Assembly: GCA_000091205.1 (NCBI GenBank)
Contig: AP006489.2
Length of the DNA: 64,000 nt
From: Cyanidioschyzon merolae
Lineage: Eukaryota
Reading direction: 5' to 3' (one strand)
Of the stretch, positions 1,188 to 29,031 are shown in pieces. Every line of letters begins with the position of its first letter. Position 1 is the stretch's first letter. The position numbers and the translations under genes were made by a program. Below the pieces are notes generated by a model. The model made no database searches. It saw only the letters and a list, made by a program, of their open reading frames with translations, and had not been told where the DNA came from.

Positions 1188-3344
1188 CAGCGAGCTCGTC
1201 GTTCAAGTACGGGAAGCAGTGAAAGGTTTGACGTCCTGCAAAGGCGCTGGCGGCTTTTCCGTCTCGATCGAAAGCTTCGCATGATTTGATCCAAGAATAT
1301 CTATATGTATATTTAAGTCCATTTATCTGTACTATATGGTACATGGCCGCTAACAGGCGACGCATGACGCACTGCGCGCGCCGCTGGGGCAGGGACTTTG
1401 GGAGCGCCAAAGCATCCAGGGCTGCTTTGTTGCATCGAGACCAGTCTGTAGCACGTAGTCTGGCTTTGTTTGTTGCAGCGGCGCTAGTTTCTCAACAATG
1501 GCGAGGCACCAACTGGTTGCAGACACGCCCGCGAAGGACAACTGGCAAGTTCAGTGCTCATGCTACGCTCGATCGATACATGAATTTTGGGTATTCATGG
1601 AGCATTGAACTGCTCGCTACGTTCGTGCTTGAGGTATCTACGGATATTTTAGGTCCACATCCTGGACAGTCAAGGTACAGCCAGCAGCGTTTATGGATGC
1701 GTACATGCTGTTGGGATTGCTGGTCGTCATCTCTGGGTAGCTTCTTCAACGCTCCGCTGCTGCTATTCGTGAAATCATCAGAGTCAGGACGACTCACAAT
1801 GCCCACGAGCAAGGGATCAGCACATACCGGATACCAGTATCCGTACCAGACGTAGAGGCATCTATGTTTGTCGATTCCTTGTATATATTGTGCTCAAATC
1901 ATGAACTCTTGTTCAGGTTTTCGATCTATCCATTTCAAGGTAACTGATGGCGCCGCGATTCGCACCGCTGGATGGACGACGAAACAAACTCGTTTTCGTG
2001 CTTGACGAATTGTTCGCAAGCTCGTGCCCAAAGCTCACTGAACCTGTTGCGTCCAATTATGGTCTAATCCATTAGAAAGACCATTCCTCCTCTCATTGGG
2101 ACCACTGACGCAACAGCCTTCGACAACTGCATGATATCTCTCACGGGGTACGCGCTGAGAGGCTCCCGTCGCTTCTGTGTGCATAGAAAAGCGTCTCGTA
2201 CTCGAATTTCATTCACTGCAATAATCGCTTCAAAAGATAATTGCGTCGCCGCTTTGCACGAAAGGTGCTCAAATGGATCGAAATTTTCCGACTGGTTCTC
2301 GAGCCTAGATGCTGATTCTGGTACTTGATTCATCTTGATTGGCATCGCGTTCCGTAAATCCTTTTGTCGAATGGAATAGCGTGTGCGTTCGTGTCCAGCG
2401 GGCATCGCACTCGCGAAAGGGAGCTCTCAGCAGAGGCCCATCATTGCAGGATACGGTACAGAGCGTCCAAACACAGATAGGGGCATCGCGAGGAGCCCTC
2501 GGTATTCGTCAGGGGCATGCACCGAATGATGCAGCAAGCACTCATGTGGAGCATGGCGGTGCTCGGATGAGGAGCTACGCAGGACATGCGCAAATGCCTG
2601 ACCACAGCCAGGTATCCGTTTTGCGATGAGTGCACAAATGTTGCTCAAAGAGAACCTGGAACTGGTATACGAAGCGTAGCTAGCGACTCCAATACGTGTA
2701 TGCAATGCTTCAACAACGGCTGGAAACAGCGATATCGTGACTTGAACGCCGCTATGAAAATCTTTCGGCCGCAGGAAAAGGAGCTAGAGCAAAAAGTCCC
2801 TGACATTTAGTGCTCTGCACAAGAGAGGAAACCGGAGTAGTCGCAGGAAGTGCCCGCCAGACTTGTATTTATGGCACGCGTAAGAACCGAACAAGCGAGC
2901 ATGTGTGTCCGTGCCTGGTGACTTGCGCCATTGTAGCCTGACATGGGCCTATCTCCCCTCATTTTGTACTAGTAGCAGATGAGGCGTCTCGCTCTGACCA
3001 CAGGTGCTTAGAGCCACTAGCGTTGCATCGTAGGGTACATGCGTTGCGATCTGCCTGTCCATCTGTCTGGCTCGAGTCAACGATTTGCGTGCTGGAGCAA
3101 AAGCCGGAAACCCGCGAGATGGAACGAGAATGCGGACGGGATTCCAATGCTAGCCTGCTTGCCGTGGTTGTTCCCTCTCAACGGTGCCATACACAACCGC
3201 CTCCAATCAAAAAACGTCCAAGCATCCGCGACAATCGGTAGTACCTTCAATTCCCCAACGAATTCCAGGCGACGCGAGATACGTACGCATTCCGAGACTA
3301 CAGCGTTCGATGTGAATCGCCTTTCCAACGGGCTTGTGGCCGTT

Positions 3345-10621: not shown

Positions 10622-13600
10622 TTATCGCTGCGCTGTGCTTCCATCGTCGCTGACAGCCCGGTTGGAAGGTACGGTTTCCAGGTTCCCAGTGTCGGTGTCA
10701 CGCTGAGGATCGGGTTCTGTTTCGCGCAACAGAAAACGCACAAACTCGCGACCGAGCGATACGGCGTTCGAACGTGGCCATACGCGTCCGAGGGCTTGCG
10801 AACGTTCCGCCTCCGTACATTGGAGCATTCGCAGGAGCAGGTCCAGCGCTTCACGACGCTGGTTTGCTTTCTCGCTCAGCAGAAACACCAGCAGCAGCTG
10901 GCGGAGAAAAGGTCTGTCAACGGGTTCGTCAGCCGCTGTGCTTTCAATAACCTGATCGACATCCAAAAGCTCGGGAACAAGGGGCTCTTGCTGCTGCTGC
11001 TGCTGCTGCTGCGTATCTACGCTCCCGTCTCCCTGTTCGCCCAAAGCGAGGCGTTTTCCGCTTTCGGCATTGAAATAGACCGGGTGCTCGCTGGAGCTAT
11101 CCCCGAGGACAGGATCAATCAAAGGCCGGTATCGTTGCCTCAGCATCAGCATCTTCCACCAGTTCCGTTCCTGGGAGAGACGTGCAACTCGAGTCTGAGC
11201 CTCCTCGAGTGTCGCTCGGCATTCGGCCAATGTGTCGGTCAGCTGCGCGTTCTCCGCTCGGGCAGCCACGAGCTCTGCCTCTGTTTGTTCGAGGCGCGCA
11301 CGCAATGCAGACAACTCCGTATCTTTTTCCTGCAAAGCCAACTCGCTCCGCAGTAAACGACGCTCTATTTCGCTGAGCTGCGTGCGGTGCTGTTCTTGAT
11401 TGCGTGCCAGGGCGGCCTCGTGAGACTGCTGCATCGCCGTGAGCGCCGTCGTAAGTCGCCGTTCCCGTTCTTCAAACTCAAGCAGACGCTTCTCCAAGGA
11501 TGCCATGGACCGCTGCAGGTCCACCATCTTGGTGGACGCAGATGTCTCCGCACGGCGGCTCGCCTCCTGCTCCTCCTTGGCGATGCGCAACTGTTCGAGT
11601 GCTTGTTCGAGCGCCTCCTCCAGTGACTCTGTATTGGATTCCTGTTCTAAGCAGTGTTCACGAAGCTTCTCTACTTCAGTTTGTAGGAGGATGTACTCGG
11701 CGTGGAGTGCCTCATACCGCACAGCCCAGTGCTCAGCCTCTTTTTGAGCAGCTGCGTAACGCGCTGCGATACTTGCAATTTCGTCTTGATGACCGATAAC
11801 GCGCTCGCTTTCGTGTCCAGCACTCGGGCTAGTGCCGACATCCGAGCCCTGTACTCGCTCACTGGTGTGTGTTGCGGCCTCGACGCTTTCCTCGCGGGAC
11901 AGATGCTGTTCGGAGGCACCCGCTGGAGGTGATATCGCCCGATCGTCGGATTGTGCTGCAGTGGAGGCTGCTTCGAGACGCGGCCGCTGCGTTTCGGGAG
12001 CACTGCGCAGGTGCTCGGCGCTTGTCTCTGCGACGTAGGCGGCAGTCCGAAAAGCCATCTCGCTCTCAAAAGTGAGTCTGCTAGAGCCAGGGACGGAATG
12101 CAGTGTTCCATCCGCTGCTCGCCGACGCTCGGTGATCCATGCTGTGGAATCTTCAGCTGCTGCTAAGCGATCACAACTGCTCCCGCCAGATGCAATGGAC
12201 GCAACACCAGAGACTGGACTTTGGACGCGGGCCGAAGGCGTCGTTGAGCCTTGCCCCGGTGGTGACGAGACTCCCGGCGACTGCGGCACCTGCTCCCGGG
12301 TCATTGTTGAGTCCTCCAAACGATCCGATCCGCTATCATTGCCAAAAAACGGGCCAGCAACCGGAATACTGCTCTCTGGAAGCAGATAGGACAATTCCTC
12401 ATCAGCGCTGGCGAGCGATCCAGCCTGTAGATCAACGGTGCGCGCGTTCGAGGACGTTGCTGCAGCTGGCGACTCAACAGCAACTGAGGCACTTCCGATG
12501 CCTGGAAGCCGCACAGCAGCCACTGCGGCTGACGCCCTGTCTATCGCTGGGTCTAGAGCTGCTGCCGCTGCCGTTGGCGGTGTCATCGACCGGGTTTCAG
12601 GAGCGCGCAGCGCCTCGGGTTCGCTGGGCGAAGCGCTCGACAGCATCCTTGCATCCCGCGGAGACGAGCTCCCTGCTACCCGGGTGGATCCTTCCGAATG
12701 ACCTGCAGCGGTTTCCGTCGACATCACGGATGCAGATTCTCCTATCGCTGCAGTAATGTCTCGCGATCCCTCCGTGTCAAGCTGGGCTTCTTGCGCTTCA
12801 GATGCTGCGGCCGCCTCAGGTACCGTCGATGGTAAGGTGCTTGGGGTCAGGAGCGGCTCCTTCGATACCGCTGCTTGCGCCTCATGAACAGCCAATGGCG
12901 AAGGAGTATGGATTAAGGGCGGCTCATCCAGCACCGCTCCTGGTGACACCGGCGGCGTAGCGCTCTTTCGTGTGCCGGCTCCGGCTGCTGCAATCTTTAT
13001 TGCCAATGCTTCTCCAGTTTCGGGGGCGCTAGGTTCAGGTGGATGCTGATCGGATCCGCCATGTGCCCGACTGGACTTTGCAGAGCGAATTGGATCCGCG
13101 TGAGTACCTGTATGGAATACTTGCTCGCTGTCCATCATGGTAATCGAGTCAGTTGTCGGCATGCTCGCCTGCAGGGTCTCATCATGGCGGGCCAGGTCTG
13201 GATCGCCCTTGGCGGTGGCATCCGATATCGGCCGGTTCGCAAGCTGAGCCTGCCTCCTTGCAATCGTATTGGTTTCAGTCTGTTGTGGGCTGACGCTTTT
13301 CACAGAAGAACCTCCTTGCTCGAATGTATGTGTAGTTTCCGATGAGACAGGTGGTGCTTTTGAATCGAAATAGAACACATTGCCAGGCGCTTGCCCCTGC
13401 ACAGTAGATAGATGTGCGTGAATCGCCGCTGAACCTTGCGCTCGCTGAGCTGCCTCTTTGCATTCGAGCGGCATAAACCTCTCCATATCCGAGACAGCAT
13501 GCTCATCAGCTGGTTTCAACTTGAGCTGCACATCGGGATGTTTGCCTGGAGCAGTGCGATAACCACTAGAGTGGTCGATAGCGGCCTGTGCGTCGCCCTC

Positions 13601-14362
13601 AGGGCCTCGACTTTGCCATGCGGTTTCATTGTAGGGCGCTTGCCAAGCATCATCCGGTGAGGCACGATGTGCTACCTGCCCAGCTACCACGGACGACTTC
13701 AATGCAGCTCGTGGGCTCACTTGCCGCTCACTCACAGGTGTACCTGATGCGCGCTTCGTGGCCTGCAAGTCACTGGGCGGTGCATCTGCCAGACTTGCTC
13801 CGGCTGTCGCAGCGTTCGGACTTGCGTGGTCGGCGACCAGCGGTGCCTCGTCAGCGCTGCTTTTCACTGCCGACGCGCCCAGAGGTCGAGCACCAAGGAC
13901 ACGACGTTTTGGTCGCCGCAACGTGGACCCTGCGCCTTCTGGTTCCGCACTTACGGCCTTTGGAAGCTGGACAAGAGCCGGTACGATCGAAGCAGCTTGA
14001 CTCGAACCGTTCTCGTCGTCCGTGGTCGTAGCTGGCGATCGGTGCTCCCGCGGATACGTCTCTGTTTGCAGTTCCACTGGCCTTATGGGGTTCTTCGCTG
14101 GCTTGTTGGATCGAGTGAGGGCGTCACCCGCTCGAAGCGGTAGTACTACGCTACTCTGCAGAGAAGTTGCTTGCTTCATTGCTTTCGACACGGAAGCTTC
14201 CTCCGGGCTTTCCGTGTCATCCTCGTCTGCGACCTCGAGAGCTGCACGCGCATCCTCTAGTAACTCGCGAGCGGCTTCTGCGACCTTCTCGGCTCGTTTA
14301 CGTGCCTCAATGGCTCTGTTAAAAGCTTCCTGGCGGAGCGCTTGCCACATGAACAAGTGCAA
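10622..14362 (-). CDS. Golgin-like coiled-coil protein with a C-terminal GRIP domain, a long N-terminal disordered region and an internal polyQ tract.
   Basis: The central region is heptad-rich with E/L/R/Q (LQTEVEKLREHCLEQESNTESLEEALEQALEQLRIAKEEQ...). The C-terminal FLRQLLLVFLLSEKANQRREALDLLLRMLQCTEAERSQAL matches the GRIP consensus (golgin-97 YLRKVLFEYMMGRETKTMAKVITTVLKFPDDQTQKIL), with Phe at the usually conserved Tyr. The (GCT)8 tract at about 10988-11011 encodes Q8. Confidence 0.5.
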   Translation of the reverse strand: MHLFMWQALRQEAFNRAIEARKRAEKVAEAARELLEDARAALEVADEDDTESPEEASVSKAMKQATSLQSSVVLPLRAGDALTRSNKPAKNPIRPVELQTETYPREHRSPATTTDDENGSSQAASIVPALVQLPKAVSAEPEGAGSTLRRPKRRVLGARPLGASAVKSSADEAPLVADHASPNAATAGASLADAPPSDLQATKRASGTPVSERQVSPRAALKSSVVAGQVAHRASPDDAWQAPYNETAWQSRGPEGDAQAAIDHSSGYRTAPGKHPDVQLKLKPADEHAVSDMERFMPLECKEAAQRAQGSAAIHAHLSTVQGQAPGNVFYFDSKAPPVSSETTHTFEQGGSSVKSVSPQQTETNTIARRQAQLANRPISDATAKGDPDLARHDETLQASMPTTDSITMMDSEQVFHTGTHADPIRSAKSSRAHGGSDQHPPEPSAPETGEALAIKIAAAGAGTRKSATPPVSPGAVLDEPPLIHTPSPLAVHEAQAAVSKEPLLTPSTLPSTVPEAAAASEAQEAQLDTEGSRDITAAIGESASVMSTETAAGHSEGSTRVAGSSSPRDARMLSSASPSEPEALRAPETRSMTPPTAAAAALDPAIDRASAAVAAVRLPGIGSASVAVESPAAATSSNARTVDLQAGSLASADEELSYLLPESSIPVAGPFFGNDSGSDRLEDSTMTREQVPQSPGVSSPPGQGSTTPSARVQSPVSGVASIASGGSSCDRLAAAEDSTAWITERRRAADGTLHSVPGSSRLTFESEMAFRTAAYVAETSAEHLRSAPETQRPRLEAASTAAQSDDRAISPPAGASEQHLSREESVEAATHTSERVQGSDVGTSPSAGHESERVIGHQDEIASIAARYAAAQKEAEHWAVRYEALHAEYILLQTEVEKLREHCLEQESNTESLEEALEQALEQLRIAKEEQEASRRAETSASTKMVDLQRSMASLEKRLLEFEERERRLTTALTAMQQSHEAALARNQEQHRTQLSEIERRLLRSELALQEKDTELSALRARLEQTEAELVAARAENAQLTDTLAECRATLEEAQTRVARLSQERNWWKMLMLRQRYRPLIDPVLGDSSSEHPVYFNAESGKRLALGEQGDGSVDTQQQQQQQQEPLVPELLDVDQVIESTAADEPVDRPFLRQLLLVFLLSEKANQRREALDLLLRMLQCTEAERSQALGRVWPRSNAVSLGREFVRFLLRETEPDPQRDTDTGNLETVPSNRAVSDDGSTAQR

Positions 14363-14857: not shown

Positions 14858-14880
<23 letters not shown>
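14848..14880. repeat. (GAT)11 microsatellite.
   Basis: Directly visible as gatgatgat... x11. It creates the polyD, polyH and polyI pseudo-ORFs listed in the track. Confidence 0.95.
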
Positions 14881-14895: not shown

Positions 14896-15131
14896 GCTCC
14901 GTCGGGGTAGGCTCCACTCGTCGCACGACCAGCGACCCCTGGTGTGTGGAGCTGTTCCGTTGGACAAAAGCCCTGAGCGGAAAAAGAGGCAAGCGAGCAC
15001 AAGGCCTGGCAAAACTTCTTCGAACCTTGAGGTTGTACGCAGATATCAGATTAAAAAGGAGCAGTGAACTGCTCGCATTCGTTCTGCCCGTCAATATTTC
15101 AGCGAATTGTTCAAAAGCATAGCCTCGAAAC

Positions 15132-16317
15132 TCCCAATCCATCCATAAGCGCTTATGGATGCATACGTCGTTCGAGGACCCCTGGTCTTTTTTTCGGAGT
15201 GGTTCGCTCACCGCTTTGCTGCCGGCACTCGTTTCGATACAGGAATCGAGGTGGTTCACGACAACCTCGAATACATATTCGTGAATTGGCCTGTATCCTC
15301 ATCCAATGCGAACGTGCAAGCCGCTGCTCTTCTGCATTCCGGAGGTATCGCATGCCGGAATCACGCATTTTCATGCCCGGAATCTTTCTGTATCGAGGCA
15401 GCGAATAAGTGCAGAAAATTCCCACCTTTACATGGGCACGAAAAGCATTTCGTCTTCGCCTGCTAGCGAATTCTGCACTGGTTCATGGCGAGTCATCACT
15501 GAATGTGTCACGTCCAACAATCCGCTGCGTTCGAATGGCCAATGGCCCTCTCGTTGTGGTGAACGACGCACTGGCATTCGACAGCATCTTGATACGTCTC
15601 ACAGGATGTGCTCGCGGGGACTCGCGTCTTTTCCTTTTGCATTTCGAACGGTCTTCGACTTGGACGTTCTCTTCGCAGCAATCGCTTCTAGTGGAGCGTG
15701 CGTCATCGCGTCGCACGATACAAGCAATGGCCAGCTCGATAGATGTCGATCTGTTTTCTTTCCTGGATTTTCATCGCAGTATTTGTTCCATCACGAACAT
15801 TACCGAGTTCCACAAATACTTTATCGAATGGAACAGTGTGCACTTGCATTTGCAGCAGAGAGCGTACGTGCCGAGAGCATCATCTGCAAGTAGCCCGTGC
15901 GTATAGGGTACGGTATCGGGCACGCAAACCGAGACAGGTATAGACAATGCCCTTCTATACCCGTCAGTAACGTGTAACAATCGATGAAGCAAGCGCTCAC
16001 AATCGACAGCATGGCTCCCCGGAGTGGCAGCATGGTGTACGCGTGCGAACATTCGACCGCAGTCGGCTGGCACCGTCGCATACGGCAAACCTCTTTCGCA
16101 TACGCAGCAGATGAGCATACCAAGCGAAAAGTAGACCGCAACGCCGACCTACGCATCCAGTGCGTCCCCCGAAGCCGGAAGCAGCCAAATACTGACTCTA
16201 ATGTTGCCGGCAACATCCTTCACCAGCTGACAAAGAAGCCGGAAGGACCAGAGCGTCCAGCGTACTACACTCCAGAGGTAAAAGAGATGACTCTGAACCA
16301 GTCACAGAAAAAAAGCC
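15132..16317 (+). repeat. Direct repeat copy 1 (about 1186 bp), left flank of the nitrate-assimilation cluster.
   Basis: Near-identical to 27673-28857. The same ORFs appear in both copies (15064..15408 equals 27653..27949; 15306..15893 versus 27847..28434 differ at 3 of 195 aa). Boundaries were mapped by eye to tcccaatccatccataagcgc... through ...cacagaaaaaagcc. A 20-bp perfect palindrome ATCCATAAGCGCTTATGGAT sits at the 5' edge. Confidence 0.9.
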
Positions 16318-17584
16318 CGCAGAGGCTGGTGTTATTGACAATAGCCAGAGATGCCTTCGTTAAGCTGTACGCGGATATTGGCAAGGCTTTTCTTTCTCGT
16401 CATGACATTGTCACGTGTATACCATAATGTATTCCTTGCTACAAGCTTTGCGCAGCGCATTCGCGGAAGGTGCGCTTCGTTCCAGCGAAGAACGCACGAA
16501 TCGCACGGGAGTCCCGCAGAATTCCGAAAGCCGTCCCTAACCTCAGCACAGACATTCAGGTGCTCTGACGGCGCTGCAATGCACCATGTATCCCATTGAT
16601 GCCACCCGGTTCGGACTGGGGCGTGATCCCTCCCACGATTCACCTGGTGTAGTGCTTACCCCAGACGCTTGCTCTGGCGACGTGCAAGTGTCCCATGGAG
16701 GCGTGAACGCTCGTCACGGCCTTTACTGACATCGGCTCGCTGTCACAAGGACTGATGCGCTCTGCTTGGTGCTGTCCGGATCCAACAAGCAGATCCACTT
16801 TCTTAAAGACGTACGAGAGATGAATGCAGCGGGGCATTCAGAGAGGCACCAATATCACCGCTTGACGAGGCATCAGTCTGGACGCTGCCCCAGGGGATGC
16901 TACGTGCTGCCACACAGATTGCAGCGTAGGCGTCCATAGGCAGCGTCGCTTGCGAAGCGATCGATGTCGGGCATACATAAACGCTCGAGAGAAAAAAACA
17001 AATCGGTTCCCGCCATCTTCGCATGGAGCGGCGAGATGTCGTCAAGCAAAGTTCATGGAACGATTTTCCAGCCAACGTAACATCGATTACCAGCTCACGA
17101 ACCGAAAAGCGATCCTTGATATGCGCAAAGTTTGCCAAGAAGGTCAGGATGTATCTTGGCACACATTTCGGTGTATGTTGTTATGAAAAGGAAAATGTAT
17201 TTTCCTGCGCTTTTTAGTTATTTCCTCGTCACTTCGGAACATGGATATGTCGATTACGAATGCGTATGCACCCATAACCAATGAATGGCAAGACGCGTTG
17301 CAGAGAGAATCACCCGAACCCTGGAGAACCCAGGTGCACATGCCTGCGTCCAATCATCGGTCGACCGGGCACGTGCTGGATGCATTGCCCTCTCGATCGC
17401 GCTTGTACCGTCAGTTGCCTGAAGTCTATCTGATGCATGCTCCGAGGTGGCGAACCACCATCTCTTGCAGTGCATGGTGCAGCATGACGACTGCCTTGCA
17501 AAGTTAGCCGTACCACCGCATGCATATATCCTGCACATCCACATGTGCCACGTAGACTCATTCACGAAGCTCTATCTCGGATGC

Positions 17585-19291
17585 CTACGGCTTCTGAGCT
17601 GGATGCACGTCCGAAACGTGTTCCGCCTCAGGGCGTGTGCCACGATCAAGAGCACTTGTCGTTTCCACCGGTTCAATCGAGTCGCGCATGACGCTCTGCA
17701 GTGCGCCAGTATTCATGGGTTCGCCTATCGCTACGATCGGCGACATAGCCTTGTCGTCTGGCGGCTGCTCCGAGACACCAAGATCGTCCTTTTGGAGACT
17801 CAAGCGATTCAGCGCACGCAATTCTGCATCAGATATTCCAATGGTCGTCACTTTCACGGGGAGTGGCCAAAGCAACAGAAACGACAAGACTGAGATACCC
17901 AGCACGACAAAGGAGATTAGGCGAACCGCATCCGGATCGCTCATGTGGCTAAACACAAGACTGAGGGTGACGCCGCCAGTATTCCCGCCCGCACCAACGA
18001 TACCACCCACGGACCCGGTCGCGATCGGATCCACGAAGGGGACGATCGCGAAAACTGCGCCGCATGACGCCTGCGTGAAAAGGGAAAAAAGAATCAAAGT
18101 GGGTATTGCTGCACCGATGGTCGTCATCCGGGAGAAAACCAAGCAGAATACACCCTCGAGAACCAGGTTCGCGAACAACCAGAGCACACGTCCGCGCATG
18201 CTGTAGCGACGCGCAATCAGATCCGAGCCAATACCGCCAACAGCCCGCGCAAACAGGTTCATTAGTCCAAAGAGACCTGCCGCAACACCGGCTATCGATT
18301 GATCAAGGTTGAAGACTTTGTTGAAGTAAGTAGCCAGCACGTTATCCATGGTCAGCTCAACACCGAAAGAAGACGCATACAGGCAGAACAGCACATACGT
18401 TCGCGGATTTCTTGCTGCTCGCGCAAAAGCCTCGAGTGCTGAAATCGGGCGCAAGTTCCCGATTCGATAGAGATTCTTGTAGTCACCGTCTGGGCAGTCG
18501 TCGGAGAAGAAGAACAAGACCACGGCCCAGATCAGGGCCATGGTACCAGGGATCACCATCACGACTCGCCAGGCTTTTTCCTCGTCCAAACCGAAGACCT
18601 TCATCAAGTTATAGAACTGCGGCATAAGCGCATTGGTGGCGCCACCGCCCGCATTGCCCCATCCCGCTGCAACCGCATTCGCTGTTCCAATGATATTCCT
18701 CGAGAACATCAGCGCACACCAGTACTCAGTTACAACGAAGGTTGCACCAAGACCGCCGATGAAAAAACGTGCTGTGGCGAATGATGCAAAATTATACACC
18801 GTTCCGAACAGATACACCGGGATTGAGAACACCGCCAGCAGGAGCGCCTGAACACGTCGTGGCCCGAAGCGGTCCACCAGGGCACCAGTCACCATGCGCA
18901 TGAACACTGTACCTGAAAGCGCAATCGCATTCGAGTGCGCTTTGTTCGCTTTGGTCAAGTCCAATGCTTTGTCCGAGGAAATACTCGGTAAAAGCGCTGG
19001 TACCGCAAACCAACCGAAAAACGCGATGAAAAAGGATGACCATGCAAAGAAAAAGGCCCGCATATGCGGACGGTCGAAGCGCCACGGCTCCAGGCGCCTT
19101 GCCCGGTGTAGGGCATCGACTGGCAAACGGTACGAATACAGCGGAGCCGCCACCGACTCCACTTCAAGGTCTTTCCATTCTTTACTGTTCGGACGCGAAG
19201 GCCCCAGAGATGAGTCGAGGGTGTCGTCTCGGAGGAGGATCTCTTTCTCGTCCAACGCTGTAGGGACAGGTTGGCCAGCTCCCTCCGCCAT
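17585..19291 (-). CDS. NRT2: High-affinity nitrate/nitrite transporter, NNP family (NRT2), an MFS transporter.
   Basis: The NNP nitrate signature AAGWGNAGGG is present in GGATFVVTEYWCALMFSRNIIGTANAVAAGWGNAGGGATNALMPQ. About 12 hydrophobic segments with Gly-rich MFS motifs are visible, and the gene is adjacent and divergent to nitrate reductase. Confidence 0.88.
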   Translation of the reverse strand: MAEGAGQPVPTALDEKEILLRDDTLDSSLGPSRPNSKEWKDLEVESVAAPLYSYRLPVDALHRARRLEPWRFDRPHMRAFFFAWSSFFIAFFGWFAVPALLPSISSDKALDLTKANKAHSNAIALSGTVFMRMVTGALVDRFGPRRVQALLLAVFSIPVYLFGTVYNFASFATARFFIGGLGATFVVTEYWCALMFSRNIIGTANAVAAGWGNAGGGATNALMPQFYNLMKVFGLDEEKAWRVVMVIPGTMALIWAVVLFFFSDDCPDGDYKNLYRIGNLRPISALEAFARAARNPRTYVLFCLYASSFGVELTMDNVLATYFNKVFNLDQSIAGVAAGLFGLMNLFARAVGGIGSDLIARRYSMRGRVLWLFANLVLEGVFCLVFSRMTTIGAAIPTLILFSLFTQASCGAVFAIVPFVDPIATGSVGGIVGAGGNTGGVTLSLVFSHMSDPDAVRLISFVVLGISVLSFLLLWPLPVKVTTIGISDAELRALNRLSLQKDDLGVSEQPPDDKAMSPIVAIGEPMNTGALQSVMRDSIEPVETTSALDRGTRPEAEHVSDVHPAQKP

Positions 19292-20163
19292 GCCGGAGTG
19301 GTCAGGACAGCGGTTTTGTGCTCAACACTTAAGTACGTTATGTATGTCGGGGAAACGCACCAAGCGTCAACTCCCCTTCCGCTGACAAGTTGTGGCAGAC
19401 ACAAAGTGCCTCTCAACTGAATGCCAAACACGAATACAACGTGTGGCGCACGCATGCACCATCATGCGTGCATCGCCGTGCGCACGCATGCGATAGGTCG
19501 ATGGCGCGCGCGCGCGCGCCGCTGCAACCGAATCGTTGACCGTTGAACGAATACGGAGGCGTACGCCAACGCCAACAACGCATCACGCCCACACGTGCTG
19601 GACACACGATGCCGATCCCGAAATACGACGCCGCTACGCTCCTGGACGTGGCGCCAACGAACGGCTCAACAGATTCGTGACAGGAGCAACAAGAACAACA
19701 ACAGTGACATCGCGAACGTGTTTCCTAGTTCGCGTAAAAGGCAAACGTGCAGCTGTACACCAGCGTTAGAAACTGGTTGGTGAGTTTTGAGGGGCACTTT
19801 TGAGTTGCAAGCGTTTGGAGGGTTTTTTAGAATTGTGGAGTTTGCTAGTTGTTGGTTGTAGTTGCCGTTCACGGAGCTAGGGTGCGAACACGACTTGAGG
19901 GCGTGGGGTGCTCGCCAGCACTCCGTTGTCACCGTGAAAATTCTGCAAGACTGCTCGGACGTGTTTTATTAGCTCTGAGTTCTATCGTCTGTGCAATTGT
20001 GATTTTTTTTGTTAGTGAACAACGAAGAAGAAGGTGGAAAACGAGTCGAGCAATCTAGCCGAAACGTGTGACCTCGCTCTGGGACGCGAATCTTGTTCGC
20101 TGAAACGCCCTATCGTCGAAAGACTGGAACCAAGAAGAATTCAAACGAAGCTGAAGGCCGCGA
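19292..20163. promoter_or_regulatory. Divergent intergenic region between NRT2 and nitrate reductase, presumed to be a bidirectional promoter.
   Basis: 872 bp lie between two divergently oriented start codons. The region contains a (GC)9 tract at about 19497-19515 and T-rich tracts. No specific binding site could be established by eye. Confidence 0.35.
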
Positions 20164-23109
20164 TTGTATGCTCGCTCGTGTCGACTCTTCAGTCAGTACC
20201 CCAATTGTGGATACCTTGCAAGGTCTCGGGACTGTCTATTCACGTACCACACGATGCACACTGTACCGGAGGGCTGCAGCTCCCCGCGTGCCGATGAGCA
20301 GACTAAGCTGATGCGCCAACAACCGCATGAGAACGGCACCAAACCGGCGATATTGTCGGAAGCGAGCGCGCTGCTCGCTGCAATGAGGCACTGGGAGGAG
20401 CAGCTCGCGCAGCGCCAGCTCCCCATCGACAAGCGAGATCAAAACACACCCGACGACTGGGTGCCTCGTCATCAGGCGATGGTGCGTCTCACGGGGAGGC
20501 ACCCGTTCAATGCCGAGCCGCCACTATGTTTGCTAGATCAGGATCTCACGAGCCAGGAACTTCACTATGTACGGAACCATGGAGCAGTCCCGCATCTGAC
20601 CCTGGGCACGCACCGCATTCATATCAGTGGCCTGGTAGAACGTCCGGGCGCGTTTTCTGTAGAGGAACTGCTCGCGCTGGGGGAGCTCGTCACGATCCCT
20701 GTGACCCTCGTGTGCGCTGGCAACCGGCGCAAGGAACTCAATCAAATACGCCAAAGCATTGGTTTCCACTGGGGTGCAGGCGGCGCCTCCACGTCCTTCT
20801 GGACAGGGGTACGTTTGGCGGACGTCCTCCGTCACTGCCAAGTCTGTGAATCTCCGAAAGCCCGTTATGTATGCTTCACTGGTGCTGATGAGCCAGCGAA
20901 AGGTCCGTACGGTACTAGTATACCGCTCGCGATGGCGCTGGATCCGCACGCTGACGTACTCCTAGCGGTTGCTCAGAATGGAGCGCCTCTACATCCGGAC
21001 CATGGGTATCCTGTTCGACTTTTGGTGCCAGGATGGATTGGCGGGCGCATGGTCAAGTGGCTGTCCCATGTTGAGGTTTCAGACCGCGAATCGCAGAACC
21101 ATTACCATTTTTTTGATAATCGCATCATGCCCCCACACGTGGATAAGGAGCGCGCCGACTCGGAGAAATGGTGGTATCGCCCCGAGTACCTTTTCAACGA
21201 GCTGAATATCAACTCGGCGGTAGTGCGCCCGCTGCACGATGAATTGCTTCCGCTGCACCATGCGAGCGAGCAGCATTCCTATCGTATCGAAGGCTACGCC
21301 TACAGCGGCGGTGGCAGACCCGTCACGCGTGTGGAGATCACTTTCGATGACGGTCAGCTTTGGAATCTGTGCGAGCTGCGGCATCCTTTTGAGCCGAACG
21401 CAGCCGGACGGCAATGGGCCTGGAGTCGCTTCAGCTTCAATGCATCACTCGTGCATTTGCTGTGTTGCACCGAGTTTGCAGTCAGGGCCTGGGATAGCAG
21501 CAACAATACACAGCCGCATCGCTGGACCTGGAACGTCATGGGTATGGGCAATAATGCGTGGTACCGCGTGCGCGTCTCACCGGTACCCGATCCCGGCACC
21601 GGACGTATTTCGCTGCGTTTCGAGCATCCTACAGTGCCGGGGCCGACGGCTGGCGGCTGGATGGGTTCCAGTACTGTCCCAGGAGCGTCGCACTCGGGGC
21701 AGCAACCAGCTGTGCCTGCACCAGCAACAGAACATGCACTGCGAGACGCCCCGGAGGCGAAGCGCGACATCGCCCAAATGGCTGAGCGGGTGCAGATGCC
21801 ACCTGTGCCGAACGCAGTTGGCAGCACGGTGCATGGCTCCAATGTGTACCAACAAATGATGCGCAAAAAGACCGCGGAAAAGCTCCAGCAGGCGCAACAA
21901 CGCCTCTATACAAGCGCCCAAGTTGAGCGGCACCAGAGTGAGACCGATCTTTGGATCGTAGTGCGCGGTCGTGTCTACGACGTGACGCGCTATCTGAACG
22001 AGCACCCCGGTGGCAAGGCGGCGATCATGATGAATGCCGGACAGGATTGTACCGAAGACTTTGAGGCCATTCACTCCGAGAAAGCCTGGAAGTTGCTGGA
22101 TGACTTTTACATCGGAGAATTGGCTCCTGCTGGGTCATCCGCAGATGCGTCGCTCTCGTCGTCGCCTCATCTGGCGTATACGGACTCGTCGACGGATCTG
22201 CTGCGGGAGCAGTTCTCCAGAGACGCAGTCATTCACGCCGATGCCGCTGACGGCGCCTGTACCGAGAGTATCGATGGATGCCGCCCGGCATTAGACCCAA
22301 AGAAATGGAAGGACTTTGTGCTCGCCAGCAAGTCGTATATCACGAAGAACACGGTGCGACTGCGCTTTGCTCTACCTGATGTCAACCAAGTGCTGGGTCT
22401 GCCTACAGGGAATCATTTGCTCATTCGGGCGCGAATTGAGAACAAGAATGTCGCACGGGCGTACACACCGACGAGTCTCGGCCACGAAGCCGGCTTCTTC
22501 GAGCTTGTGATCAAAGTGTACCGCGCGGGCGCGCATCCTTCATACCCGTCTGGCGGGAAAATGTCGCAGTATCTGGAACTGCTTCGTATTGGAGACACGG
22601 TGCAGGTCAAGGGCCCACTTGGGCACTTTAGCTACGTCGGACTTGGCGCGTACATGTTACATGGACGAGCTGGAAGGGCGCGGCGGTTCGCTTTTCTTTG
22701 TGCAGGCAGTGGCATCACGCCAGCGTTCCAGGTGATGAAAGCAATCCAGGTTGAGCTTCAAGAGCATGCGAAACAGTCATCTACACCGTTTCTGGATGCT
22801 ATATACCTGGTCTACGCGAATCGAAACGAGGACGAGATTCTGCTCTTCCAGGAACTCGAAGCATGGCGCCAGTGCGATGCGCGCTTTCAGTTCTGCTACG
22901 TACTGAGTCAACCGTCGGAAGCCATTTCCAAAACGTTTCCGGAGGCTGTCGTTGGCCACGTGAATCAGGAGCTGCTGGCAGCCCGTCTACCGGGGCCACG
23001 TAGTGATCTTATTATCGGCATTTGTGGTCCAGCGGGATTTCAGGATGATGCGTGCATTCCGGCACTGAAAGCTCTGGGATATACTTCGGAACAGTTTTTT
23101 ACGTTCTAA
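20164..23109 (+). CDS. Assimilatory nitrate reductase [NAD(P)H] with Moco, dimerisation, cytochrome b5 and FAD/NAD domains. The true start may instead be the in-frame ATG at about 20251 (MHTVPEG...).
   Basis: The Moco Cys motif VTLVCAGNRRKELNQIRQSIGFHWGAGGASTSFWTGVRL is present. The b5 haem domain reads YLNEHPGGKAAIMMNAGQDCTEDFEAIHSEKAWKLL. The FAD motif RAYTPTS and the NAD motif CAGSGITP are present, and the canonical domain order is preserved in 981 aa. Confidence 0.95.
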   Translation: MYARSCRLFSQYPNCGYLARSRDCLFTYHTMHTVPEGCSSPRADEQTKLMRQQPHENGTKPAILSEASALLAAMRHWEEQLAQRQLPIDKRDQNTPDDWVPRHQAMVRLTGRHPFNAEPPLCLLDQDLTSQELHYVRNHGAVPHLTLGTHRIHISGLVERPGAFSVEELLALGELVTIPVTLVCAGNRRKELNQIRQSIGFHWGAGGASTSFWTGVRLADVLRHCQVCESPKARYVCFTGADEPAKGPYGTSIPLAMALDPHADVLLAVAQNGAPLHPDHGYPVRLLVPGWIGGRMVKWLSHVEVSDRESQNHYHFFDNRIMPPHVDKERADSEKWWYRPEYLFNELNINSAVVRPLHDELLPLHHASEQHSYRIEGYAYSGGGRPVTRVEITFDDGQLWNLCELRHPFEPNAAGRQWAWSRFSFNASLVHLLCCTEFAVRAWDSSNNTQPHRWTWNVMGMGNNAWYRVRVSPVPDPGTGRISLRFEHPTVPGPTAGGWMGSSTVPGASHSGQQPAVPAPATEHALRDAPEAKRDIAQMAERVQMPPVPNAVGSTVHGSNVYQQMMRKKTAEKLQQAQQRLYTSAQVERHQSETDLWIVVRGRVYDVTRYLNEHPGGKAAIMMNAGQDCTEDFEAIHSEKAWKLLDDFYIGELAPAGSSADASLSSSPHLAYTDSSTDLLREQFSRDAVIHADAADGACTESIDGCRPALDPKKWKDFVLASKSYITKNTVRLRFALPDVNQVLGLPTGNHLLIRARIENKNVARAYTPTSLGHEAGFFELVIKVYRAGAHPSYPSGGKMSQYLELLRIGDTVQVKGPLGHFSYVGLGAYMLHGRAGRARRFAFLCAGSGITPAFQVMKAIQVELQEHAKQSSTPFLDAIYLVYANRNEDEILLFQELEAWRQCDARFQFCYVLSQPSEAISKTFPEAVVGHVNQELLAARLPGPRSDLIIGICGPAGFQDDACIPALKALGYTSEQFFTF

Positions 23110-24342
23110 AGCCGTTTGTTTGCGATTTTTTTCTCCCAGTGATAAGCAGAAGACTTCGATGCAGTCTCGTCGCAGTGCTTGTCATACAAGCCAATACCGC
23201 GCTGCTCGCACCAGACGTGCACCCGCAACCTTCCTCTGAGTCTACGCAGTTCGCACGCTTTACCCCAAGGTGGAAAGCGCGTCAGCCAGCGCACCGGATT
23301 CGTGCATGCTGGCCATGCGATGCCATACGCAACGCGCCCGAGCCAATGAACAGCCGACGACCGCACTCGCTGCCCAGGCACGCGTTCCTCCGTGCCCCTG
23401 GACCGCTCAGCAGCACTGGCGCTCCAGGCGGGTCCCAGAGCTTCGAACGAGCACCTACGCCGCGACCGATGCCATACGAATTGTGCAAGAGGCGTGCACC
23501 TACCAAAGTGAATCTGTATTTCCTGGAAAGCGCACGACGGCCCCATGATGGGCCATACGCTTGAAGACCGCACAAAAAATTCGGAATCTCTGCGACGTCC
23601 TGATCTCTCTCTGACGCGAAGCGCCGGCATCGCACACCGCGGAACCCGGCAAATCGTGTGGCGGCGGTAGCGCCCGGCAGCGCATCGTCAAACCGGCGAT
23701 GATCAGCATATGGCATGCCAATCAGCGACAATAATGGATCATTTAGTTCCAAAAATTACAAACTTACCATCGCTCGGTAGATCGCCGAGTCGCATGTACA
23801 TTGCGGACGATGCGCAGCCGCCGTGCGTGCAGCGACCACCTGAACGGATGGCGCAGCTGATCGACTCGCGGTGACCCGCAGCGTTCGCCGTCTCAGATTC
23901 GGAACGGAAACGGATCGGATACCGATGGACTCGGGCGTCTCTATTGCCCAAAGCTTGCCTGCGCTGCGACCATATAGCGTCGCAGCAAGAAGCGAAAACT
24001 GAGCCTCATGGCACCGACCAAGTGCTGTGTCTTTCGCTGCTGCGCGCGAGCTGTGTTTGGGCGTAGCACTGCCTAGTGTCGGCGATTTGGCTATTCCCTG
24101 GTGCTAGCGCGCTGACACAAATGAGGTGCTCTGAATTTTTACGGTCACTGAAAAAGACGGCAGATAGCCCCTTGGTCGGCGCTTCGGTTTTAACAAGACT
24201 GCCAGGAGCCCGCGGCAACTCTGACATCAGCCTCTGCTATCGGTTCCCGCCTCATAGGCTGCACCCTTGAGGAATTCGTTCCAGCACGCACCCTGATCGC
24301 GTGCTTACCCGAGAATGCTGTTCATGGATTCGCCAGCAGCAG

Positions 24343-26403
24343 CTACGATACGGGCGCTGCCGGCACCCCATCCCAATAACGTTGCGCATACGCCTCGAGT
24401 TGCGCCTTCCCAACTCGATCGCAAAAGTCTCCAAAGGACTCGTCCGGCTCGCGTGCGCTTTTCCAGAATACAAACACCGGCTCCAGGACGCGCTCCACCT
24501 GATCGTCCGTCACCCGATCGATATACGGCCACGCGAGGCGCGTCTGCATCGGGCTCCCGCCCAGCCACACCTGATACGTACAATTCGGACCTGATCCGAC
24601 GAATCCCAACTCGGCCATGTACGGACGCGTGCACCCGTTCGGGCATCCAGTCATGCGCATCACGAACGATGCGTGCGGCGAGATGCCGACTTTGGACAGC
24701 AGCTCGCGCACGCGCTGCACGTAGCGCGGCATGACACGCTCCGCCTCCGTGATCGCCGGCGGACACAGCGGCAACGCTGGACACGCCATCGCGTCACGCA
24801 TCAGCGGATCCAGTGCGGATGCTGCCGTCTCGACGCCGAACGACGCCAGCAGCGTCTCGACGTCAGGGCGCGCTGTCGCTGGCACCTGCGTGATGAGAAG
24901 GTTCTGCTGCGGCGTACATACCAGGGGAAAGTTGAAGCGATCCGTTAGGGCACGGAGTGCTTTCTTCAGCTCGTCTTTGATCCGCCCGTTCTGTACGTAG
25001 AGGCCGAAAAACCAGCGTCCGTCTCCTTGCTCGCGCCAACCCAGATAATCCTGGAAAGTCCACGGCGGCATGGAGCGTATCGACTCTAGCGCACTGCCAC
25101 CACCCACCATATACGACTTGACGAGTTCGCGGAATCGATCGATGCCCAGCCGATGCACCAGGTACTTCATCCGGGCGTTCGTGCGAACTGCACGATTGCC
25201 GTGGTCCCGCTGGGCAGCCAAGATCGCTTTGAGTGTGTCGTACAGCGCCGCTGCCGGTACGTACCCCAGCGGATCGGCAGCACGCGCGAAGGTCTCCTCT
25301 TTGTTATGAGTGCGACCCATGCCGCCGCCGACGAGAATATTGGCACCTTCCAGTTGACCCTGCGCATCACAAAAAACGACGATTCCAATGTCGTGTGTGT
25401 AGATGTCGATAGAATTATCCCCGGGAACAGTGACACCAACTTTGAACTTGCGCGGAAGGTACAGCTTTCCGTAAAGCGGCTCGACGGAATCCTGCAGAAC
25501 CTGACCACGCCCGTTATCCTCCGTCATGAGTCGTCGAACTTCGTCCATGTCCAGCTCCTTCTTCCAGTACTCGATGCTGGCGGCAAGCTCCCCATCGAGC
25601 CACAGATCCGCAAACGCGTGCGACTGAATCGCGAACAGCTCTGCCACCATTCTGGCAACGTGTCGTGCCTGCGCATACGCGGCATCGACGAAGGGCGCCG
25701 GCGGCGCGATGACGTTGCGCGAGCAGTCGCCGCTCGCACCATACAGCCCGCCGCCCGCTCGCACGATGCTCTGGACGACGGTTTTCAGATTGGATTTATG
25801 GATGCCGTGGATTTGGAACGAAGAGCGCGTCGTGAGCCGCAGCGTCTTGTTCCCATAGGTTTCACTGATGTCGTCGAGTGTCGTATACAGCGAAGGCGGA
25901 CACTCGCCGGCGGGCATTTTCAGACGGAGCATGAACTGGTATTTCTTGAGCTCCCCGCGAACACGTTGATCTCGGTTATCTTGGAGATATCCGCCATGGA
26001 ACTTGATAAGTCCGATGCAGTCATCGGAGATGAAGATCTGGTCGTTGCCCAGTTCTTCCATTAATGGGTGACGAAGATAGTCCGAGTTCAGTTTCGGCAA
26101 CTCGTATGGATTTAGCTTGAGCTGGTCGAGTGTCCCGTCACGGATTGCTTCCTCGATATGCTTCCGCGTTGTGATCGGCACGACCGTATGCTTCTTCCGA
26201 GACTGTTCAGATGAGAGGTTTGCTATGATGTTCCGCCGGGCGGTTCGGCACTGCCGTTGGCGTCGTAGTCGGTCTCGCAACAGTACCTCGGTCAACGGAT
26301 AAACGCCCGGTGCTGCGGAACCGGTGGGTGCCAAACCTCTGCGAGCGCCGACTAGAGGTTTTGCGTACGTGACGAACATCATCAGAGTATACCGCACGCG
26401 CAA
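24343..26403 (-). CDS. Siroheme/[4Fe-4S] sulfite/nitrite reductase hemoprotein, ferredoxin type and CysI/SiR-like. By position it is the presumptive nitrite reductase of the cluster.
   Basis: [77 protein letters not shown] closely matches the siroheme-cluster region of E. coli CysI (CPLAMAEAERFLP...[33 protein letters not shown]) and plant SiR (PLCPLAITEAERGIP...[24 protein letters not shown]). There is no FAD/NAD(P)H domain in the 686 aa. The N-terminus is Arg-rich and presequence-like. Confidence 0.8.
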   Translation of the reverse strand: [686 protein letters not shown]

Positions 26404-27229
26404 CTATGTTGAAGGCGCTGCTCTGGCACGAGCTCGAATGGCCAGCAGAGCTTAAACGAAGTAAGGCAAAAGCCATCCTGAATTCATGCGTTCCTATCGA
26501 TCCCACGGGTGCGTGTTATCCAACGGATCACGGATCCGTTGAGCATCGCAGACCTGTCCAGTTAAGTCTATAGTTGGCTCGTTTTGAATCTCTTCGCAAA
26601 GGCGCGCAGCGTGCCCCACGCGCACACGTGCCGAAGATTCGTGCGATGCCGATCCGGCCTCATAGCGGACACGTGTCGCAAGGAAATGCCGTGCACGCAG
26701 CGTCCTTCCCATGGCCGTTATGTACAGTATGATTCATGTTAATTGTTTTAAGTGGACAAGTCTTGACACATGCCAGTGTTCTCCAACCGTGCGCTTCCTA
26801 TCAGCGCGCGGTGAAGCATCGCTCGATTCACCTACTTCCAAGTTCCATAACCCTTACCTCTTCTTGGATATACTAGCCGCTTCATACGTTCTATCGTTCG
26901 CCGCGTGCCTGCCCTGCTGCATCTGGAATAGCGATTATAGTGCCGGTGCGGTCGTAGCACGGTTACGGAACGGCGTTGCAGTTCCACAGAGGGCGTCGGC
27001 GCGAGAGTATACATGAATATCCACACACAGACGCCTCTCAGCTATTCTTGACCGGCCGACTTCTATCGGTTTCAGTTTCTGCTAGAACACTTCCAGCTTG
27101 AGAGGCTGCACCACAAAACTCGATCGCGACAGCTCCTCGGATGTCGTCTTCAACACTGCATATCGTCGGATATTGATAGCGGCGTCAAAGTCTCGGTTCA
27201 CGAATTCCGTCTGTTCATTGGCTCAGGTG

Positions 27230-27600
27230 GGACTCAACAAAGCAAGGATTCCTAGAACTCGCGCCTTCTGTGCAAGCAAGGCCTCGTCATCGCACCGTCG
27301 GGAAGCACCTGTTGACGCCAATCTCCCCTCTTGTTCTTCGTATTCTTTTTCACTTGCTCTTCTTCGCTCGATGGTATGCGAGAGGAGGATTGTTTTCGTT
27401 TTTCCTTTCGCGGCAGCCGGCGACAGCGGGCCCCCAGGATCCCTGCCGTCCACGCCCGTTCCTTTCCCTTGAATTTTATTTCTCCAAATGAAAGCACTTT
27501 GAGCACATCTGCTGTACGCTGCGAGAAAGTACTTGATGACATGCACCCGGGTCTGAAACACATTTGAGTTGAACGACGGTAAGATTCATATGCAACGCTA
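27230..27600 (-). mobile_element. Diverged fragment homologous to the 5' end and N-terminal K/R-rich region of the Fanzor-like element at 57.24-57.65 kb.
   Basis: DNA similarity of about 75% by eye between ...cccctcttgttcttcgtattctttttcacttgctcttcttcgctcgatggtatgcgagaggaggattgttttcgtttttcctttcgcggcagccggcgacagcgggcccccaggatcc... (27320-27450) and 57360-57470. The peptide similarity DPGGPLSPAAAKGKTKT versus DPGGPGSPAAREKKQKT holds in the same frame and orientation. It ends about 70 bp before direct repeat copy 2. Confidence 0.55.
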
Positions 27601-27672
27601 AATTTTTTGCACCGATCCCGCCTCAAGCTATTTCTTCCGAACGTTTCCTACGATGCACAGTATAATTATTAT

Positions 27673-28857
27673 TCCCAATCCATCCATAAGCGCTTACGGA
27701 TGCATACGTCGTTCGAGGACCCCTGGTCTTTTTTTCGGAGTGGTTCGCTCACCGCTTTGCTGCCGGCACTCGTTTCGATACAGGAATCGAGGTGGTTCAC
27801 GACAACCTCGAATACATATTCGTGAATTGGCCTGTATCCTCATCCAATGCGAACGTGCAAGCCGCTGCTCTTCTGCATTCCGGAGGTATCGCATGCCGGA
27901 ATCACGCATTTTCATGCCCGGAATCTTTCTGTATCGAGGCAGCGAATAAGTGCAGAAAATTCCCACCTTTACATGGGCACGAAAAGCATTTCGTCTTCGC
28001 CTGCTAGCGAATTCTGCACTGGTTCATGGCGAGTCATCACTGAATGTGTCACGTCCAACAATCCGCTGCGTTCGAATGGCCAATGGCCCTCTCGTTGTGG
28101 TGAACGACGCACTGGCATTCGCCAGCATCTTGATACGTCTCACAGGATGTGCTCGCGGGGACTCGCGACTTTTCCTTTTGCATTTCGAACGGTCTTGGAC
28201 TTGGACGTTCTCTTCGCAGCAATCGCTTCTAGTGGAGTGTGCGTCATCGCGTCGCACGATACAAGCAATGGCCAGCTCGATAGATGTCGATCTGTTTTCT
28301 TTCCTGGATTTTCATCGCAGTATTTGTTCCATCACGAACATTACCGAGTTCCACAAATACTTTATCGAATGGAACAGTGTGCACTTGCATTTGCAGCAGA
28401 GAGCGTACGTGCCGAGAGCATCATCTGCAAGTAGCCCGTGCGTATAGGGTACGGTATCGGGCACGCAAACCGAGACAGGTATAGACAATGCCCTTCTATA
28501 CCCGTCAGTAACGTGTAACAATCGATGAAGCAAGCGCTCACACTCGACAGCATGGCTCCCCGGAGTGGCAGCATGGTGTACGCGTGCGAACATTCGACCG
28601 CAGTCGGCTGGCACCGCCGCATACGGCAAACCTCTTTCGCATACGCAGCAGATGAGCATACCAAGCGAAAAGTAGACCGCAACGCCGACCTACGCATCCA
28701 GTGCGTCCCCCGAAGCCGGAAGCAGCCAAATACTGACTCTAATGTTGCCGGCAACATCCTTCACCAGCTGACAAAGAAGCCGGAAGGACCAGAGCGTCCA
28801 GCGTACTACACTCCAGAGGTAAAAGAGATGACTCTGAACCAGTCACAGAAAAAAGCC
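27673..28857 (+). repeat. Direct repeat copy 2 (about 1185 bp), right flank of the nitrate-assimilation cluster.
   Basis: About 99% identical to 15132-16317 (offset 12541 bp). The palindrome at its 5' edge carries one mismatch (ATCCATAAGCGCTTACGGAT). Confidence 0.9.
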
Positions 28858-29031
28858 TGAAAATCCTCATTATGAAAATAATGGGAAAAGATTCAAACTT
28901 TAGCGCGTATGCCCTTGTTCGCAAAATGAGCCCGCTCCATTTCGTACGAACACGGGTGTCCTAGCGTATCCGCGTCCCGATCGCCTCGATTCAAATCATA
29001 AATCCTACTTCATAAACCAGGTTACCTGCTT

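Follow-up and report, generated by a model that had tools for sequence, protein, structure and literature searches.

Marker removal by recombination between direct repeats is an established method in Cyanidioschyzon merolae 10D, a red alga: URA5.3 with a duplicated URA terminator, or CAT-HSVtk with two UBQ terminators, is popped out by intrachromosomal recombination, whereby the intervening DNA is lost and one repeat is left behind (PMC8504449, PMC13353863). The alga has also been described, in a review, as showing high recombination between repeated promoters (PMC13062707). Here we describe a natural locus of the same organism for which the same mechanism is proposed. Within a 64,000-nt stretch of chromosome 7 of strain 10D (contig AP006489.2; hereafter the window), the genes for a nitrate/nitrite transporter (NRT), a nitrate reductase (NR) and a sulfite reductase (SiR)-like nitrite reductase (NIR) lie between two 1.19-kb direct repeats, and some environmental assemblies carry one repeat and no cluster at this site. 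Compared with the engineered constructs, these repeats are natural and longer, the cargo is 11.4 kb of native metabolic genes, and the apparent products occur in the wild without counter-selection.

General deletions by non-allelic homologous recombination (NAHR), such as the formation of solo long terminal repeats (LTRs) and the copy-number variants of segmental duplications, involve long identical direct repeats, and the deletion allele keeps one copy. The locus described here resembles them in the single copy that is kept and in signs of gene conversion between the copies. Unlike solo LTRs, it has no TG..CA ends, no gag or pol and no target-site duplication, and the duplicated unit is probably part of a non-coding intergenic element. 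Within-species presence/absence polymorphism is also known for the nitrate genes of the picocyanobacteria Prochlorococcus and Synechococcus and for the GAL cluster of yeast. As in those cases, a complete, clustered and dispensable nutrient pathway varies in the population, plausibly tracking nutrient supply; unlike them, the present case concerns a sexual eukaryotic red alga and a defined repeat-mediated breakpoint, and no pseudogenised intermediates of the cluster were seen among the environmental contigs.

The fungal and oomycete NRT2-NR-NiR (nitrite reductase) clusters, for which horizontal transfer has been proposed, share the same three clustered functions and the divergent transporter–reductase pair. 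In contrast, the host here belongs to the Rhodophyta, nitrite is reduced by an enzyme of the ferredoxin sulfite-reductase type rather than by an NAD(P)H-NiR, and the cluster shows vertical synteny with a sister genus. A preliminary description of this DNA, made from the sequence alone, had seen a possible bearing on transfers between stramenopiles and fungi; the genes are exact matches to those of the red alga C. merolae 10D, and nothing suggests such an event. The cluster itself, CMG018C-CMG019C-CMG021C, is the known one, whose genes, nitrogen regulation and SiR-like reductase have already been described (Imamura 2010; Fujiwara 2015). No mention of flanking repeats or of a natural cluster-less allele was found in the openly searchable literature, a scope that leaves out subscription papers and, among them, the genome papers. 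The proposed mechanism is ordinary NAHR; the novelty lies in its action on the whole of a nutrient pathway, in an alga used as a model, and in the occurrence of both alleles in nature.

Direct repeats and solo-repeat alleles

The left and right repeats (Table 1) are 99.3% identical over 1186 alignment columns by self-BLAST of the window and MAFFT, and in 10D they differ by 7 mismatches and one 1-nt indel within an A-run. They lie on the same strand of the same chromosome with an offset of 12,541 bp, and the homology is cut off sharply at either end, a similarity that cannot be due to chance. Both copies are intergenic: the left one is 769 bp from the start of the CMG016C open reading frame (ORF) and 1267 bp from the NRT stop, and the right one is 1290 bp upstream of the SiR-like NIR start and 174 bp downstream of the BioA stop. 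The pair thus consists of highly identical direct repeats of at least several hundred bp on one chromosome, as a substrate of NAHR does. These values bear out the preliminary description, which had given about 99% identity at the same offset in intergenic DNA, and the identity lies above the 90% that it had named as its own lower limit. Gene coordinates and strands likewise agree with its single block, in which NRT and NR are divergent, and NR and the reductase convergent.

Table 1. Features of the nitrate-assimilation locus, with positions in the window
Feature	Position	Strand	Remarks
Left flanking gene CMG016C, conserved hypothetical, 1246-aa ORF	10622..14362	-	Intact in deletion alleles
Left direct repeat, 1186 bp	15132..16317	+	Between CMG016C and NRT; probably the parental copy
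20-bp palindrome ATCCATAAGCGCTTATGGAT	15141..15160	.	Near the repeat start
NRT2-type nitrate/nitrite transporter NRT (CMG018C, BAM79552), 568 aa	17585..19291	-	Exact match to C. merolae 10D protein
Divergent NRT-NR intergenic (shared promoter) region	19292..20253	.	From gene coordinates
Nitrate reductase NR (CMG019C, BAM79553), 951 aa	20254..23109	+	Exact match to C. merolae 10D protein
Siroheme ferredoxin sulfite-reductase-like nitrite reductase (CmSiRB/NIR, CMG021C, BAM79554), 679 aa	24343..26382	-	Exact match; NIR_SIR
Right direct repeat, 1185 bp	27673..28857	+	Between SiR-like NIR and BioA; probably a derived partial duplicate
Right flanking gene, bifunctional BioD-BioA (CMG023C, BAM79556), 802 aa	29032..31440	-	Exact match; intact in deletion alleles
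Segment missing from solo-repeat alleles, 12,541 bp	16318..28857	.	Equivalent to 15132-27672; crossover point within the repeat unplaceable
Ancient third member of the repeat family	1599..2784	+	About 57% identical, collinear with 15058-16239, non-coding, intergenic

The ORFs of the repeat unit have no Pfam match above cut-off, and a 195-aa ORF was rejected as a gene, having no Pfam match and, as its sole homologue, the same ORF in metagenomes at this locus; no Rfam family and no tRNA match the unit either. The termini are TCCC...AGCC, and no target-site duplication was found at the repeats, the flanks GAAAC and TGAAA being different. With neither TG..CA ends nor a target-site duplication, and with NRT, NR and SiR as the only inner genes, an LTR retrotransposon or solo LTR was rejected; in both respects, the absence of coding sequence and of LTR ends, the preliminary description was right. 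The 20-bp palindrome ATCCATAAGCGCTTATGGAT, which it had placed at the very start of each repeat, is real but begins 10 bp inside the left one and is perfect in the 10D left copy only. A C at the position equivalent to 15156 breaks it in the right copy and in each of the 15 environmental copies, and the left half is missing from the old third copy; the palindrome is unlikely to matter. Nor, judged by the metagenome contig collection and the window, is the unit a high-copy dispersed repeat, which the preliminary description had allowed would make its placement here unremarkable: an exact 22-mer from the repeat centre was found, in the metagenome contig collection, in 6 true contigs, all from this locus, and the window holds one further copy (~57%); diverged copies may occur elsewhere in the 10D genome. 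A seventh contig, L016, was rejected as a 24-nt chance match in an unrelated sequence.

Environmental contigs were found by look-up of the window proteins and their close variants, which gave metagenome and Sequence Read Archive assemblies 99.2-99.7% identical to 10D, while the 22-mer scan added contigs as low as ~98.4% identical. This range is consistent with the published divergence of 0.71% between 10D and the Yellowstone strain MS1 (PMC13353863). In 12 solo assemblies (contigs L007, L009, L012, L015, L017, L019, L020, L023, L025, L027, L028 and L030), BioA and CMG016C are joined through one repeat. All 12 align to the window up to 16317 and again from 27673, so that the overlap is exactly one repeat length; exactly 12,541 bp are missing, nothing else is gained or lost at the junction, and BioA and CMG016C are both intact, as expected of NAHR between the two copies. 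The preliminary description had reasoned that a single crossover would lose the whole pathway and had proposed that related genomes be checked for the presence or absence of the locus precisely at the repeat ends, and the 12 assemblies answer to both.

The cluster is borne by 20 samples. One contig (L001) spans the left repeat with both its flanks and another (L002) the right repeat; most of the others are 11.1-11.8 kb long and end inside both repeats, and the BioA-side contigs of these samples end 12-76 bp into the repeat. Among the 12 solo assemblies and 20 cluster-bearing samples, a solo and a cluster contig never came from one sample, and this separation, as much as the repeats, the exact solo junctions and the shared synteny reported below, is a direct observation. 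A 686-aa NR was rejected as a pseudogene because the contigs concerned start inside the gene. The A6/A7 run at the repeat end was likewise discarded as a marker of solo allele versus mis-join: A6 is confined to the right copies of 10D and L002, and A7 adjoins BioA in the cluster-bearing Ga05047xx contigs, the same as in solo alleles. Contigs L001 (ERZ27249350), L002 (Ga0080006) and L014 (Ga0209012) are 100% identical in unique DNA and are probably three assemblies of a single sample or strain; sample counts may therefore overstate independence.

We consider it very likely that NAHR between the repeats deletes the nitrate pathway and that deletion and cluster alleles both persist in nature. An older non-coding element beside CMG016C would have been copied, over 1186 bp, to a site 174 bp downstream of BioA in the Cyanidioschyzon lineage, and non-crossover recombination (gene conversion) would since have held the copies ~99.3% alike. 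A crossover between them, by intrachromosomal pop-out or unequal exchange, would remove exactly one 12,541-bp segment with NRT, NR and the SiR-like nitrite reductase, i.e., the whole nitrate-assimilation pathway, and would leave one hybrid repeat between BioA and CMG016C; such deletion alleles would coexist with cluster-bearing alleles in natural hot-spring populations. We infer recombination between the repeats to be the cause of the deletion, and deletion cells, judged by their gene content, should be unable to use nitrate. The loss would be tolerated and usually costless, as the nitrogen of these habitats is mainly ammonium, with nitrate only occasional (PMC13200283), and ammonium switches the NRT, NR and NIR promoters off (PMC4549557).

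Ancestral state, origin of the repeats and haplotypes

In Cyanidiococcus yangmingshanensis (JANCYV010000018.1), the order SET - BioA - SiR - NR - NRT - CMG016C orthologue is collinear with the window at the nucleotide level. The BioA orthologue is 63% identical, the gene orientations match those of C. merolae, and the intergenic spacers measure 508 and 963 bp. In this syntenic region there are no flanking repeats and nothing resembling the repeat unit. Because site, order and orientation are the same, the cluster at the BioA-CMG016C site predates the split of the two genera; it follows that the solo alleles are deletions, absence being the derived state, and that the repeats are a novelty of Cyanidioschyzon.

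An ancient third member of the repeat family was found at some distance to the left of the pair (Table 1). It aligns over ~1.1 kb with few gaps, scoring 165-183 bits in the sensitive self-comparison, where shuffled or unrelated DNA reached no more than 27 bits, and successive copies of the family are spaced 13.5 kb and 12.5 kb apart. A protein-coding origin of the family was rejected, since there is no codon periodicity and the tblastx matches lie in mixed frames on both strands. Homology to the third copy reaches ~74 bp to the left of the left-copy boundary (15058-15131) and is absent from the flank of the right copy, which points to the left copy as lying within an older element and to the right one as a derived, partial duplicate. 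On this sequence comparison, the left copy is probably parental and the right copy probably its partial duplicate, and the unit appears to belong to a low-copy family. Of the two histories considered in the preliminary description, recent local duplication thus holds for the repeat but not for the cluster, while the idea that the cluster was acquired or mobilised as one unit is contradicted by Cyanidiococcus, with its same site, order and orientation and no repeats, and by the lack of recombinase genes in or beside the block.

The differences between the copies suggest that they exchange sequence. In 10D, the 7 left/right differences are spread from 15156 to 16076, whereas in haplotype Y1 (L001 and L002, identical in unique DNA) all 7 left/right substitutions are confined to the final 300 bp, and the copies do not differ over the first ~870 bp; the probability of such a confinement of 7 sites to 290 bp out of 1186 is ~5e-5. 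Almost all difference sites of 10D and Y1 are distinct, the A-run indel being the sole copy-specific difference common to both, and at site 15506 both Y1 copies have C where every other copy has T. This is modest evidence that the copies undergo ongoing gene conversion and so pair and recombine, and their high identity would then be kept at least partly by conversion, not by youth alone.

Three haplogroups (A, B and C) were distinguished among the solo repeats. The family with 15436A/16099T/16107A comprises the cluster-linked L003 and L039 as well as the solo groups A and B, and the family with G/C/G at these sites comprises 10D, Y1 and solo group C, so that both haplotype families include solo and cluster-bearing members. 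The flank haplotypes are mosaic and common to solo and cluster-bearing contigs, with solo alleles on different flank haplotypes. Read from these contigs, the pattern would require either at least two deletions or one deletion that recombined onto other backgrounds; as the species is sexual (PMC13353863), the spread of a single deletion in this way is possible.

Alternative explanations

Assembly is one alternative source of the solo contigs. If they were artefacts, the de Bruijn graph of a cluster-bearing genome would have been resolved into BioA-repeat-CMG016C plus a separate repeat-cluster loop, with no natural deletion; the repeat, at 1.19 kb, does exceed the short-read insert length, and L014 joins NRT - repeat - SiR although the same haplotype yields normal junctions in L001 and L002. 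This explanation is nevertheless very improbable, given that 12 solo contigs stand against one loop-type contig and that solo and cluster contigs always come from different samples. Even within one Joint Genome Institute (JGI) project, the contigs of the cluster-bearing Ga05047xx samples are interrupted at the repeat, whereas contigs of 17-24 kb cross it in the solo Ga05065xx/66xx samples. Each Logan contig follows a path without branches through a k=31 graph, in which every 31-mer is present once per accession (PMC12424806). The Logan contigs L023 and L030 (runs SRR29605740 and SRR29605866) traverse both repeat boundaries with no branch and, given how Logan contigs are built, are not mis-joins through the repeat, while in cluster-bearing runs the paths stop k-1 into it, L046 and L048 beginning exactly 30 bp inside the repeat end. 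A purely cluster-bearing population cannot give contigs of the L023/L030 type, and this is the strongest argument against an artefact; from the contig sequences, we take the deletion allele to be real. As for L014, it crosses the repeat where the Y1 copies are identical (the first ~870 bp) and is most simply read as a wrong assembly path. It is also the one candidate junction contig for a reciprocal product, whether circle or tandem duplication, and its haplotype gives the normal junctions as well. A reversible copy-number cassette, in which duplications or 12.5-kb circles with the L014-type junction would re-integrate at a solo repeat, with balancing selection between ammonium-fed and nitrate-exposed microhabitats and repeated independent deletions, is an extension that we hold to be unlikely.

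The layout flank-repeat-cargo-repeat-flank would be expected from the single-crossover integration of a repeat-bearing circle, and L014 has the junction of such a circle. The solo allele might then be the ancestral empty site, into which the cluster and one repeat entered as a unit by a Campbell-type circle, a mobile element or horizontal transfer. This explanation is very improbable in our judgement: Cyanidiococcus has the cluster at the corresponding site with unchanged order and orientation, so that presence is ancestral and absence derived; integrase, transposase and reverse transcriptase are all lacking, as are TG..CA ends and a target-site duplication, and L014 is most simply a wrong path. 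An integrative mobile element, genomic island or giant cargo transposon was rejected on the same grounds, with no recombinase domain found in ORFs of at least 100 aa in or beside the block and the cargo present at the syntenic site. Compatible with deletion by NAHR is the idea that the two copies are retained for a function of their own, whether as a replication origin, a non-coding RNA gene or an element with a boundary or regulatory role, at the incidental cost of the deletions. The element belongs to an older family whose third copy is still alignable over ~1.1 kb; all three copies have the same orientation and are intergenic between minus-strand genes, and a second repeat pair (99.1%, 1.6 kb, inverted) flanks SBDS-Mnd1 10 kb away. 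However, the element has no Rfam match, conserved ORF or codon periodicity, is missing from the syntenic Cyanidiococcus region and is not needed by the 800-bp NIR promoter, which functions without it (PMC4549557); single-copy solo alleles persist in nature, and the palindrome is not conserved. We consider a function of this kind unlikely.

Several points weigh against deletion by NAHR as set out above. Allele calls rest on contigs, not reads, and the older JGI solo contigs L012, L015 and L017 have indirect support only, being without independent Logan support; L014 demonstrates that some assemblers can take a wrong path through the repeat. Some Logan runs may duplicate JGI libraries, so the 12 assemblies perhaps represent fewer than 12 independent samples. 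The absence of the cluster in solo alleles is established for the BioA-CMG016C site, not genome-wide. Copy-specific markers are too few to show the solo repeats as left/right hybrids, the case for gene conversion is modest (three lineage-type sites against one paralogue-type indel, and the clustering of differences), and no spontaneous deletion is known from strain 10D.

Genes, further repeats and significance

The proteins of NRT, NR, the SiR-like reductase and BioD-BioA are all exact matches to those of C. merolae 10D, on a chromosome of 584,452 bp; the gene order around CMG016C was taken from the supplement of PMC11376382. NRT matches MFS_1 and, at 283 bits, the NarK family TIGR00886, below its cut-off of 311.7, while NR has the five domains Oxidored_molyb, Mo-co_dimer, Cyt-b5, FAD_binding_6 and NAD_binding_1. 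An NNP/NRT2-type transporter together with a five-domain NR characterises a eukaryotic nitrate-assimilation cluster. CMG021C, called a siroheme reductase in the preliminary description, is indeed an NIR_SIR enzyme, but of the sulfite-reductase type: it is best matched by TIGR02042, the model for ferredoxin sulfite reductase, whose curated cut-off it exceeds with 743 bits, and against the ferredoxin nitrite reductase (Fd-NiR) model it scores 123 bits with a cut-off of 594, so that it is neither a canonical Fd-NiR nor an NAD(P)H-NiR. According to the literature citing Sekine 2009 and Imamura 2010, including PMC13200283, this SiR-like protein acts as the nitrite reductase of C. merolae. Upstream fragments of 800 bp from NR and NRT give nitrate-dependent expression, and an 800-bp NIR promoter fragment suffices for nitrogen-source regulation (PMC4549557); as the right repeat falls outside this fragment, it is dispensable for the regulation of SiR. 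Among ORFs of at least 100 aa in and beside the block, no Pfam domain of a recombinase, integrase, transposase or reverse transcriptase was found.

The spacer between BioA and SiR is 2.65 kb long in C. merolae and 0.5 kb in Cyanidiococcus. Within it, 27028-27259 and 27393-27567 resemble the intergenic DNA at 55225-55459 and 57412-57586 (64-66% identical, in the same order and orientation, 28-30 kb apart), and the spacer has the look of a patchwork of sequences copied from elsewhere. In cluster-bearing runs, four Logan contigs (L040, L042, L046 and L047) end at ~27186-27204, which implies a graph branch by a repeated 31-mer or a polymorphism. A hypothetical gene 'unique to C. merolae', CMG022C, is annotated between CMG021C and CMG023C, i.e., within 26383-29031, and has been reported as the top up-regulated gene upon E2F knockdown; the gene numbering skips CMG017C and CMG020C. 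The ATG ORFs of at least 50 aa tested in 26383-29031 match no deposited protein, and exact-sequence look-ups of 28 repeat and intergenic ORFs found none in the NCBI annotation; the right repeat is possibly the place of CMG022C. On the other side of the block, at 14857-14878, upstream of CMG016C, 10D has ~12-20 extra bases compared with all environmental contigs, a variable indel.

A second, inverted repeat pair lies at 38693-40311 and 44936-46558, with arms of 1.62 kb that are 99.1% identical around a 4.6-kb block. The block contains SBDS (41162-42046, minus strand) and Mnd1 (43972-44604, plus strand) in the order and orientation seen in Cyanidiococcus; many environmental contigs break at the arms, and the pair could permit inversion of the block. 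Self-comparison found no relation between this unit and that of the direct repeats. The inverted-repeat unit also has an old paralogue, since 63523-64000, cut by the window end, is ~60% identical to the arm part 39615-40093. Short two-copy tandem repeats occur at 52248-52427 (90-nt unit) and 56111-56260 (75-nt unit), both 84% identical, the latter within the ORF 55740-57068, and a 74-nt two-copy repeat with 131-bp spacing and 78% identity lies at 5306-5510.

As a model alga, C. merolae 10D is in wide use, and its nitrate-responsive promoters serve as standard tools. In stocks maintained for years on ammonium medium, nothing selects for the 12.5-kb block, and the same recombination could remove it. 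In nature, Cyanidioschyzon populations are predicted to be polymorphic for nitrate use through the one-step loss of transporter, nitrate reductase and nitrite reductase. If true, a free-living eukaryote with a minimal genome would here provide a rare example of whole-pathway presence/absence with a defined mechanism, and the example would bear on the recent question of why these algae retain nitrate genes in ammonium-dominated springs.

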